A stretch of 63,976 nt of DNA, counting the filler, from Malassezia furfur (taxonomy: Eukaryota), in NCBI GenBank assembly GCA_052055015.1. It is 5 parts of 5 records of this genome, joined end to end, with 100 filler letters (N's around TTAATTAATTAA, not from the genome) between each part and the next. Parts side by side here need not be neighbours in the genome. Positions count along the whole stretch, not along the records: positions 1 to 13,549 come from JBQJIT010000313.1; 4 more parts are not named here. The stretch is one strand, 5' to 3'. Position 1 is the first letter of the stretch, and each line of letters starts with the position of its first letter. Below are positions 8,101 through 10,196 of this stretch, piece after piece. A program made the position numbers and the translations under genes. The notes beneath the pieces were generated by a model that saw nothing but the letters and a program-made list of their open reading frames with translations, did not search any database and was not told the DNA's origin.

Positions 8101-8174
8101 GCGAGGACGAAGACGACGAAGACGACTATGACGAAGAAGACGACGAAGACGACGACGAGGTAGACGATGCATAG
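2141..8174 (+). CDS. NUP159: Nup159/Nup214-like nucleoporin (beta-propeller, SAFG and FSFAK repeats, C-terminal coiled coil); introns 2180-2202, 2339-2364
   Basis: N-terminal propeller-like region (AAWSTKGKQLVLG, VRWLENHVFIVTY), long FG-type repeat region, coiled coil; two introns link ATG 2141 to the 1906-aa ORF. Confidence 0.85.
5120..5700 (+). repeat. Coding tandem repeat, 126-nt (42-aa) unit, about 4.5 copies, with a 252-nt higher-order period
   Basis: ccaagccaagtgcgcctgc recurs at 5161, 5287 and 5539; unit AFSFAKPEGKQEDKKEDDKPNKPAFSFAKSDDKKEESKPSAP. Confidence 0.9.
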
Positions 8175-8179
8175 TCCTA

Positions 8180-9862
8180 CTACAGGTCGAGCGCAATTGT
8201 ACTAGCGAGCCCCTGTGCCTCTGGGAATGCGTTGGGGTCCACCCACCGCCACACGTCGTAGCGGTGGTTCAGTCCGCTCTGCTCGTGGATCGCGTACGGC
8301 CCGCCATCCTCGCCGCCAAGGCACGCGGCACGGCCGTCCGGCCCGGCGTGCGCGCCGCAGAAGCCGCCCGAGCGGGGGGCTGGGAACAGGAAGTACACGG
8401 TCTGCACACGCGAGTGGATCAGCGCCATGGCACAGTACACACATGGCTCGTGTGTCAAAAAGAGGGATAGGCCCGTCAGCAGATAGTCCTGCCCGTTCGC
8501 CGCGACACCCTCGACCGGCCCCGTACGCCGCGACGCACGCCACTCGGCTACTGCACGCACCGCGTTCGGTACTGCATGACGCAGAGGATGTGCGTCGCGC
8601 GTACGTGTGTCGTGCGCATCGAGCGCAATCGCGACTTGCCCTTGCGCGTCTGGCGCCTCGGTCACGAAGGCCGCGCACCCAATCTCGCCCGCGACTTGTG
8701 CCGCGCGCGCCGTCGCCAGGCACCTCGCAAAACCGGCGCGGATCCAGTCGGTCGCGTGCGGTGCCTGCCAATGCGCCGCGTCCTGCGCGCGGTCCACGAG
8801 CGTTGCTGCCCGTGCCGCGTCGCTGCCCGGCAAGGCGTTCCCCGTCGCGAGGCCAGCGCCAGGCGGCAAGAAGATGCACGGCCATACGGATGCCCACTCG
8901 GCAAGACGCGCGCGACTTGGCGCAGCACACACTGGCACACGCACGAGGTACAGCTCGGGTACGGCGAGGTCGCCGAGCGCAGGCGCCAGCAGCGCAACGA
9001 GCTCTTCGCGCGACTGCGGGCCGTATTGGGCAACGAGCACCGCGAGGCGGTCGGTGTCGGCATTCGCTGGGAGTGCATTCCCATCGGCATCGACGCGCGT
9101 CACTTCGCGCGCCTTGCGGAATGTGCGCAGATGCCGCAACTGCGCGCCGCTGTGCACCACCTTGTCCTTGGTTAGGCCTTGGAGCACACGCGCGACCGAC
9201 GCACAGTTGCGCGGCTCAGCATCCAAGGCCCAAGCCAGCATAGTGTCAAGCGGCATGGTGCGTGGGTCTGGTGATGCAGTGACGCGCCAAAGTGGGGCGT
9301 CCGTGTCGACGGGCGCGCGTGCATATGTAGATGGTGGGGGGGTATCGAAGGAGCCTGCATCGTCCGCATCCGTGAGGTCCATTTGGCCAAACAGCGTGCA
9401 CTCGTCTGTCTCAGTCGCTGGAGGTGTTGTGGGCACATCATCTGTCTCCCACCACATTTTGCCGGCGCCATAGCAGATGCACAGCTCCTCGCCCGCAGCG
9501 ATGTCACGCACCGTACGAAACTGGATGCACTGCGCTGCGCGATTGAGCTGGTAGGATACATTTGCGCGCGGTGAGTGATTAAAGAGTGAGCCTAACCCCA
9601 GTGCGAGAGCCATGGTGCTGCCGTTCGCGCGCTTCTCCCAAACAAACGTGTATGAGTCGAGGAGCGTGTGCCGTCCGTGCGCTTGGTATTCTTCGGCGCC
9701 GAACAGGAGTACGGGGCTGATTTCTACAACGACATCACGAGCGATCGGCTGCGATGCCACCACGCCGCGGCCTGCCGTAGGCGTGTCACAGATGCGCAGG
9801 CCGAGCGCATTGAGATGCGGCGTCACCTCTTCCCAGCCCGCAGGTGCGTCGCGGTTGGCCAT
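8180..9862 (-). CDS. TAD3: Fusion of a SET-domain protein and tRNA A34 deaminase non-catalytic subunit Tad3/ADAT3
   Basis: N-term GRGVVA...LFNHS..ANV...DIAAGEELCICYG (SET); C-term HPLRHAV...DYLLTG...THEPCVYCAMALIHSRV...LNHRY (ADAT3, with HAV in place of HAE). Confidence 0.88.
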   Translation of the reverse strand: MANRDAPAGWEEVTPHLNALGLRICDTPTAGRGVVASQPIARDVVVEISPVLLFGAEEYQAHGRHTLLDSYTFVWEKRANGSTMALALGLGSLFNHSPRANVSYQLNRAAQCIQFRTVRDIAAGEELCICYGAGKMWWETDDVPTTPPATETDECTLFGQMDLTDADDAGSFDTPPPSTYARAPVDTDAPLWRVTASPDPRTMPLDTMLAWALDAEPRNCASVARVLQGLTKDKVVHSGAQLRHLRTFRKAREVTRVDADGNALPANADTDRLAVLVAQYGPQSREELVALLAPALGDLAVPELYLVRVPVCAAPSRARLAEWASVWPCIFLPPGAGLATGNALPGSDAARAATLVDRAQDAAHWQAPHATDWIRAGFARCLATARAAQVAGEIGCAAFVTEAPDAQGQVAIALDAHDTRTRDAHPLRHAVPNAVRAVAEWRASRRTGPVEGVAANGQDYLLTGLSLFLTHEPCVYCAMALIHSRVQTVYFLFPAPRSGGFCGAHAGPDGRAACLGGEDGGPYAIHEQSGLNHRYDVWRWVDPNAFPEAQGLASTIALDL

Positions 9863-9929
9863 CAAAAAAAATGCCAAAATGTTAAGATCGGACCTCCACT
9901 TAACAACGATGTCGAGCGGGTGGCAAGCC

Positions 9930-10196
9930 ATGTCCCGCGTACCTATGCTGCGCCGTGCATTGCACACGACGCGCCGTGTCGGCAAGGAGCCCACGCGCAA
10001 GCCGCAAGAGACGCCCAAGAAAGATGCACCGCGTGAGAACAGCGCACCGCAGCGCTCTGTCTCCGACCGTGATCGCGAAATCCACGAACGGCTGATGGAC
10101 CGCGAAGGCGGGCACCATGCTGTCGGCATTGTGGACGGAAAATACGAGGGCGGCCTCGGAAAGGAGACCAAAAAGAACATGTTCCGCTTGATTTAG
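9930..10196 (+). CDS. Small (88 aa) probable mitochondrial protein of unknown function
   Basis: Arg-rich presequence-like MSRVPMLRRALHTTRR; C-terminus EGG...DGKYEGGL...NMFRLI resembles a small fungal protein family (recalled, unverified). Confidence 0.6.
   Translation: MSRVPMLRRALHTTRRVGKEPTRKPQETPKKDAPRENSAPQRSVSDRDREIHERLMDREGGHHAVGIVDGKYEGGLGKETKKNMFRLI

Follow-up and report, generated by a model that had tools for sequence, protein, structure and literature searches.

A stretch of Malassezia furfur DNA of 63,976 nucleotides (nt), called the window below, was taken from NCBI GenBank assembly GCA_052055015.1 and consists of five parts of five records, joined end to end with filler letters. 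Its first part (JBQJIT010000313.1) carries on the minus strand, at positions 8180-9862, a gene in which a SET domain of the methyltransferase type is joined to Tad3, the partner of Tad2 in the tRNA adenosine deaminase acting on A34. This SET-Tad3 gene and its relatives in other fungi are the subject of the present analysis.

Translation of the locus yielded 560 residues and one stop, the TAG at 8182-8180, which is immediately followed by a second TAG. Upstream of 9862, the open reading frame (ORF) continues for 106 codons, up to an ATG at 10180 (giving 666 amino acids, aa), with further in-frame ATGs at 10129 and 9931. Because this extension (9863-10180, minus strand) carries no Pfam domain and found no homologue support, and because M1 at 9862 lines up with the protein start in at least 90% of the 73 relatives aligned, 9862 was taken as the probable start. 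ORF calls in a 97%-identical cluster (582 aa) appear to begin at an ATG 22 codons before M1, placed at 9928 by length and at 9931 from reading of the ORF and the sequence.

The G+C content of the window is 54-70% and long spurious ORFs are common in all frames; ORF length alone is therefore weak evidence, and domain content decides. A chance ORF or an assembly artefact was considered and rejected, as both halves match known families and as both domains are present in 118 of the 121 proteins of near-full length, the query among them. Since the same architecture recurs in those 118 proteins, a reading of the locus as an artefact or as two genes is very unlikely. Among the 248 stop-to-stop ORFs of at least 120 aa, SET and Tad3 profiles matched the SET-Tad3 ORF only, and no second match to either was found in the 64-kb window.

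A sequence-only reading of this locus had proposed one stop-free 560-aa ORF with a compact SET domain (GRG, NHS and ELxxxY motifs), an acidic linker and a Tad3 part with pseudo-catalytic HAV and PCxxC motifs. The translation bore out the ORF, and all five motifs were read directly from it (Table 1). The domain, fold, motif and charge data given below agree with the description of the three parts.

Table 1. Features of the SET-Tad3 locus and neighbouring ORFs. Positions refer to the window, residues to the 560-aa protein.
Feature	Positions	Strand	Residues	Basis or content
SET-Tad3 gene: 560-codon ORF plus TAG stop, no intron required	8180..9862	-	1-560	Set7-type SET, acidic tail, Tad3
SET core	9464..9841	-	8-133	Pfam, phmmer, Foldseek, invariant motifs
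SET motif GRG	9772-9764	-	G31-R32-G33	direct reading
SET motif NHS	9580-9572	-	N95-H96-S97	direct reading
SET catalytic-Tyr motif	9487-9470	-	E126-L-C-I-C-Y131	direct reading
C-flank M-W-W-E (family L-W-F-E), then acidic disordered tail/linker	9296..9463	-	134-189	predicted local distance difference test (pLDDT), charge
Conserved linker island T-E-T-D-E-C-T-L-F-G-Q-M-D	9377..9415	-	150-162	column counts, shuffles
Tad3 start A-P-L-W-R-V-T (family L-P-F-x-R)	9278..9298	-	189-195	conservation, AlphaFold2 strand
Tad3 N-terminal (tRNA-binding type) domain	8813..9295	-	~190-350	pLDDT mostly >87, Foldseek, phmmer
Pseudo-catalytic cytidine-deaminase-fold domain	8219..8812	-	~351-548	Pfam, phmmer, motifs
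Tad3 motif HAV	8578-8570	-	H429-A-V431	direct reading
Tad3 motif PCxxC	8446-8432	-	P473-C-V-Y-C477	direct reading
NUP159/NUP214 ORF, 1866 aa	2574-8174	+		Pfam
Na+/H+ exchanger ORF, 538 aa	10545-12158	-		profile match

A model of the full protein was built with AlphaFold2 on an alignment of 73 rows, picked from 118 fused proteins for full length and taxonomic spread. The model had a mean pLDDT of 84 and a predicted template modelling score (pTM) of 0.67. It contained three folded domains: the SET core (residues 10-132, pLDDT mostly 86-94), a mixed alpha/beta domain (approximately 200-340) and a deaminase fold (approximately 355-545). Residues 135-185, following the SET core, were disordered (pLDDT 45-68).

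In SET enzymes, the GxG and NH motifs bind S-adenosylmethionine (SAM) and the tyrosine of ELxxxY is catalytic; all of these are present here. The Pfam SET domain (PF00856) was matched over residues 31-132 with an E-value of 2.4e-13 (50.8 bits, cut-off 22.4). In a phmmer search against the PDB, residues 22-151 matched Schizosaccharomyces pombe Set7 (5h6z) with an E-value of 3.1e-28; the next-best solved SET protein, vSET, was 21 orders of magnitude weaker (E 2.9e-7). Foldseek comparison of the modelled SET core likewise ranked Set7 first (5h6z; TMt 0.81-0.84, 44-45% identity), followed by the viral minimal SET enzyme vSET (3kma; TMt 0.88). Protein lysine methyltransferases make up the structural neighbourhood of residues 10-133, and those beyond Set7 (vSET, SETD8, SUV420H1, MLL1) are all histone methyltransferases. 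Pre-SET and post-SET zinc clusters are lacking, and the linker behind the core has one cysteine only. By these sequence and fold comparisons, the SET part is placed among the minimal SET enzymes of the S. pombe Set7 family. The phmmer alignment with Set7 shows shared G-R-G, F-N-H, E-E-L-C-I-x-Y-G and L-W-F-E motifs; Set7 differs in being a small stand-alone protein, whereas the present module is covalently joined to Tad3.

Constraint on the SET part was assessed with a SET profile made for this study, which matched 331 of 335 collected relatives, 219 of them with a complete SET domain (126 fused, 93 stand-alone). Residues G31, G89, S92, F94, N95, H96, E126, L127 and Y131 were invariant in all 126 fused proteins, and the motif residues were nearly invariant in the 93 stand-alone ones as well. 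Among the 73 aligned fused proteins, mean pairwise identity was highest in the SET core (56.5%), followed by the deaminase domain (45.5%), the Tad3 N-terminal domain (35.5%) and the linker (22.5%). The SET domain is thus the best conserved part of the fused protein, with its SAM-binding and catalytic motifs intact. Given the highest identity of all parts and motifs invariant in 126 of 126 proteins, a decaying passenger domain would not be expected to look like this.

For the C-terminal part, Pfam dCMP_cyt_deam_1 (PF00383) was matched over residues 412-492 (E 5.7e-7; 29.8 bits, cut-off 25). Residues H429, E472, P473, C474 and C477 were invariant in 73 of 73 fused proteins. Position 431, which holds the catalytic glutamate in active deaminases, was V in 45, I in 13, A in 12, T in 2 and P in 1 of these proteins and E in none, and the H-A-V of the window protein aligns with H-S-V of yeast Tad3. 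In the PDB, phmmer found yeast Tad3 (7bv5_C, E 2.9e-11), Trypanosoma brucei ADAT3 (8aw3_3, E 3.2e-11) and mouse ADAT3 (7nz7_B positions 101-294 against residues 280-509, E 4.7e-9). With Foldseek, ADAT3 chains of mouse (7nz9_B, 7nz7_B), yeast (7bv5) and T. brucei (8aw3_3) came first, with E-values of 1.9e-17 to 5.2e-10 (1.9e-17 to 4.3e-11 for 7nz9_B, 7bv5_D and 8aw3_3); the alignments, of 359-374 columns and probability 1.00, covered both the N-terminal and the deaminase domain. TM-scores to these chains were modest (TMt 0.47-0.57), as expected for a rotating domain. Because the zinc-ligand motifs are invariant and the position of the catalytic glutamate is never E, the C-terminal part is, as judged from its sequence, a bona fide pseudo-catalytic Tad3/ADAT3, the type of non-catalytic partner that presents tRNA to Tad2. 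Like the Tad3/ADAT3 proteins of yeast, mouse and T. brucei (7bv5, 7nz7-9, 8aw3), it has the N-terminal domain and the deaminase fold, with zinc ligands kept and the glutamate replaced; those proteins begin at the Tad3 N-terminus, whereas the window protein has approximately 190 extra N-terminal residues.

The junction between linker and Tad3 is conserved as L-P-F/L-x-R, with P190 in 69 and R193 in 64 of the 73 proteins, and in the AlphaFold2 model a short strand lies at residues 191-193. This strand probably joins the deaminase beta-sheet. In mouse, the very N-terminus of ADAT3 joins the sheet of the catalytic domain (ADAT3-C), and ADAT3-N is mobile, rotates freely and binds tRNA via basic patches (PMC8216470). 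By likening the junction strand to this N-terminus, the tether can be placed, tentatively, next to the Tad2/Tad3 catalytic core.

The linker holds 13 acidic residues and 1 basic residue between positions 139 and 189 (net charge -12). Across the 73 fused proteins, linkers were net negative in 70, with a median charge of -12 and a median length of 54. Model confidence was low (pLDDT 45-58 over residues 131-170, 68 over 171-180). Within this drifting segment a conserved island was recognised, consisting of an acidic run and then a hydrophobic motif, which reads E-C-T-L-F-G-Q-M-D-L in the window and D-G-W-G-G-L in Agaricomycetes. Aspartate was found at column 153 in 47 of the 73 proteins, and a hydrophobic residue at columns 158 and 161 in 70 and 69, respectively. 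The strict motif occurred in 50 of 73 linkers, compared with 2.2±1.3 (maximum 6) in 200 shuffles of the same linkers.

The tails of stand-alone Set7-type proteins were similar in character. Of those with at least 15 aa, 75 of 76 were net negative (median -8.5), and they typically finish in the same hydrophobic pattern, which aligns with the island of the window protein; by alignment, the island is equivalent to the extreme C-terminus of the stand-alone proteins. As the acidic tail and the terminal hydrophobic motif are shared in this way, the linker is best read from its sequence as the ancestral Set7-type tail, and a whole Set7-type gene, tail included, would have been joined to Tad3. When SET plus tail (175 aa) was modelled with AlphaFold2 on a 55-row alignment including stand-alone relatives, the tail reached a pLDDT of 51-64, and packing of its motif on the SET core was not supported by this model. 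A complex prediction between SET (residues 1-150) and the Tad3 body (186-560), run without controls and without an alignment, scored 0.02 against a mark of 0.34, a value that counts neither for nor against docking.

A search for homologues of near-full length returned 120 proteins besides the query. The best match was the 97%-identical cluster mentioned above, and an 84%-identical protein is named by NCBI 'tRNA-specific adenosine deaminase subunit tad3 [Malassezia brasiliensis]'; these matches mark the query as a Malassezia protein. These proteins were scanned with domain profiles made here from the 73-row alignment: SET and Tad3 were both found in the 118 proteins noted above, and the other 3 showed Tad3 only. 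With Pfam labels, P0059, P0061 and P0062 had seemed to be long Tad3 proteins devoid of SET; this was rejected, as they start inside the C-terminal half of SET and are N-terminally truncated models. Fused members were found in Ustilaginomycotina (several Malassezia, Tilletiopsis, Thecaphora, Ustilago, Sporisorium, Pseudozyma, Violaceomyces, Jaminaea and Microstroma), Agaricomycetes (Armillaria, Marasmius, Trametes, Pisolithus, Russula, Amanita, Coprinellus and Rhizoctonia) and Tremellomycetes (Cutaneotrichosporon and Naematelia). The full-length ORF is kept in many independent assemblies, in clusters of 22, 458 and 152 member sequences, which answers the refuting condition of a stop codon in sister assemblies set by the sequence-only reading. 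The ESM Atlas gave three clusters of 61, 65 and 75 members, with Basidiomycota as the commonest phylum; SET was present in 100%, 100% and 87% of their members, the deaminase domain in 87%, 83% and 95%. The frame is open across the linker in every fused lineage despite free sequence drift. The SET-Tad3 architecture is common to most basidiomycetes and not peculiar to this genome.

Two long entries contain the SET-Tad3 unit together with other sequence: P0214 (2671 aa) at residues ~1935-2643, and P0103 (780 aa, Marasmius crinis-equi) along with short-chain dehydrogenase Pfam domains. Each is probably an annotation that merges separate genes, and not an additional fusion.

For relatives of the SET part alone, an exhaustive phmmer search with residues 1-150 gave 2686 representatives at E<=0.001, 486 at <=1e-10 and 24 at <=1e-30. 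Among the best 150 of the 2686, 32 had a downstream Tad3 and 118 had none; 106 of the latter are of 300 aa or less, with a median length of 192.5 aa for the 118. Named stand-alone members come from Coemansia, Furculomyces, Podila, Polychytrium and one Chaetothyriales species. Two short motifs, used to look for S. pombe Set7 itself among the collected proteins, did not find it. SET-only gene models also occur in basidiomycetes (Meira, Cantharellus, Clavulina, Serendipita, Wallemia, Auricularia, Cerioporus and Hohenbuehelia), several of them marked partial. Those of Meira, Cantharellus, Clavulina, Serendipita and Wallemia (P0124, P0125, P0126, P0128, P0132) are 144-170 aa long and could be secondary fissions, pre-fusion states or split annotations. 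Rhizoctonia, which belongs to the order of Cantharellus, carries the fusion (P0120). Some further entries of 250-320 aa (P0224, P0228, P0230, P0233, P0237 and similar) match the SET query in two stretches with 30-36% identity, the SET domain lying in their C-terminal half; they appear to be a separate subfamily that has an insertion and is extended at the N-terminus.

A FastTree tree of 57 selected SET domains (the named ones and three unnamed), read without support values, placed six non-basidiomycete stand-alone sequences outside a group of all basidiomycete sequences. The SET-only models of Auricularia, Cerioporus and Hohenbuehelia nested among fused relatives. The tree fits a single early fusion followed by annotation splits or rare fissions and is no proof of it. 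Most likely, a single event early in basidiomycete history would have joined a complete stand-alone Set7-type gene to the 5' end of Tad3. In a survey of fungal SET-domain proteins, S. pombe SET7 stood alone in its group, with no member from Neurospora crassa or Saccharomyces cerevisiae, and the sections of the survey treating this group make no mention of a deaminase (PMC9692433).

Two neighbouring ORFs were annotated (Table 1). The first opens with a NUP159/NUP214 beta-propeller (Pfam E 1.9e-44), behind which lies a very long region of low complexity containing FG-type and repeated 'P-A-F-S-F-A-K-P-E...K-K-E-D' units; its C-terminal end is an acidic tail. This ORF is convergent with SET-Tad3; as the stop codons (8172-8174 and 8180-8182) are 5 nt apart, the 3' untranslated regions of the two genes must overlap. 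The second, from its residue 17, matches only positions 180-374 of a Na+/H+ exchanger profile of 375 positions, and another exon or frame further upstream must hold the first half of the exchanger. Past the stop of this ORF, toward 10250, the sequence still looks coding, in a different frame.

The SET-Tad3 architecture is already known: it was published in 2011 and is annotated in public databases. Iyer, Zhang, Rogozin and Aravind (2011; Nucleic Acids Research 39:9473; PMC3239186) described a basidiomycete Tad3 with an N-terminal SET fusion, with Cryptococcus CNBC2910 as the example, and proposed that it either methylates proteins of RNA editing or takes part in making a modified base. Their fusion has the same architecture as the window protein and comes from the same phylum; nothing essential differs. 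The portions of that paper on the fusion contain no family assignment of the SET part, no linker analysis and no experiment (PMC3239186). What is added here is the Set7 family link, the constraint on SET, its intact motifs, the ancestral tail motif and the lack of a conserved lysine described below. A literature search covering few subscription journals found no experimental study of the fusion and no paper mentioning both set7 and tad3. This agrees with the sequence-only reading, which knew of no functional description; its idea of a methylation activity tied to the I34 editing complex is reasonable and not new, being essentially the 2011 proposal (PMC3239186).

The same reading had drawn an analogy with TRM140 of trypanosomes, which holds in part. 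In T. brucei, a methyltransferase, Trm140, and the deaminase ADAT2/3 indeed act together on the anticodon loop (PMC6382703). The analogy is loose in that Trm140 is a separate protein that methylates C32 of tRNA (3-methylcytidine, m3C32) (PMC6382703), whereas here a SET fold of the protein-lysine type is part of the same chain. By Pfam, no RNA (m3C32) methyltransferase domain was found in the 560 or the 666 residues, SET being the only methyltransferase signature. Another accessory of Tad3, Ame1 of Fusarium graminearum, binds the Tad3 N-domain and changes what Tad2-Tad3 does (PMC11087585). It resembles the SET part as a module at the N-terminal region of Tad3, and differs in being a separate DUF726 protein of the alpha/beta-hydrolase superfamily, confined to the sexual stage of Sordariomycetes, with no similarity to SET (PMC11087585). 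Since Ame1 is unrelated and mRNA editing in Basidiomycota is disputed (PMC10282164; PMC7306014), a link between SET-Tad3 and fungal mRNA editing is weak.

Taken from the sequence and fold data, the preferred reading, to which we give a probability of about 0.5, is that Tad3 of the A34 deaminase carries an active lysine methyltransferase of the Set7 type, tethered through the acidic tail of the latter, and that this enzyme acts in trans. The SET domain would sit beside the Tad2/Tad3 catalytic core on a flexible acidic tether of ~55 residues and would methylate a lysine of another protein coming near the complex. The acidic tail with its short hydrophobic motif may be the peptide to which a basic partner docks or by which it is recruited as substrate. 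As a first guess, the target could lie in the C-terminal region of Tad2, which is basic and binds tRNA, or on some other factor associated with the complex, and its methylation would tune tRNA binding and editing. The C-terminal region of ADAT2 assists tRNA binding (PMC6382703). The window protein has 5 lysines, and no alignment column holds lysine in more than 48 of the 73 fused proteins; because no lysine is conserved, the target is probably in trans, on another protein. Automethylation of a conserved lysine in Tad3 or in the linker was put aside for the same column counts, and a conserved site of this kind seems unlikely.

Three observations weigh against this assignment. SET-only models exist in the basidiomycetes Meira, Cantharellus, Clavulina, Serendipita and Wallemia, and the fusion may thus be neither universal nor obligatory in the phylum. 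AlphaFold2 places the SET domain and the tail motif without confidence relative to the rest of the protein (pLDDT 45-58 over residues 131-170). Finally, the closest characterised relative has been published, by title, as a methyltransferase of histone H3 lysine 37 (H3K37), which points to a chromatin substrate rather than Tad2.

This last point leads to the foremost alternative, which is judged unlikely: the SET domain would keep the reported role of Set7 and methylate H3K37 or another chromatin lysine, the fusion to Tad3 only coupling expression or nuclear location, or linking the chromatin of tRNA genes to the editing of pre-tRNA, with no action of SET on the editing complex. S. pombe Set7 is reportedly, from the title of Shen et al. 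2019, a histone H3K37 methyltransferase needed for gametogenesis, and the title of PDB entry 5h6z also names it so. Set7 is by far the closest solved relative in both the phmmer and the Foldseek comparison, the next structural neighbours are all histone methyltransferases, the acidic tail would suit a basic histone substrate, and no lysine is conserved in cis. However, the fusion is kept phylum-wide with SET more conserved than Tad3, which suggests a functional link beyond co-expression, and the H3K37 assignment is known here by title.

Separate production or use of the two halves, through an internal start, an alternative transcript or cleavage of the linker, would leave the fusion with little mechanistic meaning. 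The linker is long and disordered, a methionine stands at residue 203 in Malassezia proteins, just before the Tad3-N domain, and short SET-only and Tad3-only predicted proteins are present in databases. Yet M203 is a methionine in only 19 of the 73 fused proteins, and many SET-only entries are partial or lie on very short contigs (e.g., 953 and 1026 bases). Three of them (P0216, P0217 and P0220) run on into Tad3 sequence, and in the SET tree the models of Auricularia, Cerioporus and Hohenbuehelia fall in among fused proteins. With the frame open across a drifting linker in every fused lineage, separate products are improbable.

The SET domain might instead be a non-catalytic binding or scaffold module that helps Tad3 to fold, to dimerise or to bind a partner. 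There is precedent within the same protein, as Tad3 is a catalytically dead paralogue used as a scaffold (PMC8216470). Dead enzymes usually lose catalytic residues, however; here all 126 fused proteins keep N95, H96, Y131, G31 and E126 without exception, and the 93 stand-alone ones almost without exception, which makes this explanation quite improbable. Modification of RNA by SET, helping to build an unrecognised wobble-region base with a lysine-like amine as proposed by Iyer et al. (PMC3239186), would suit its physical tether to an anticodon-loop enzyme and is nonetheless very improbable, given that the same SET type is widespread as a stand-alone protein in fungi (118 of the best 150 representatives without Tad3) and that the lysine-channel tyrosine and NH motifs are those of ordinary lysine methyltransferases.

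For tethered methylation in trans, a wider version can be considered in which, on the Rosetta-stone principle, Set7-type enzymes partner Tad2/Tad3 across fungi, whether fused or not. This extension is rather doubtful. If it were true, the family, S. pombe Set7 included, would have as its target a lysine of the ADAT complex or of a protein that this complex recruits, reached through the acidic tail motif that the family conserves. Wobble inosine is essential for eukaryotic decoding and, to our knowledge, little is known of how the Tad2/Tad3 enzyme is regulated. Under this extension, wobble-inosine formation would be subject to a control by lysine methylation that has so far gone unrecognised, for example in sexual development, a process for which Set7 is reportedly important in fission yeast and in which some ascomycetes retarget Tad2/Tad3. 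The phylum that carries the fusion includes the human-associated Malassezia and Cryptococcus, and its phylum-wide weld of the two parts, in which SET is more tightly constrained than Tad3 itself, offers a strong hint from nature of a link between methylation and tRNA editing.

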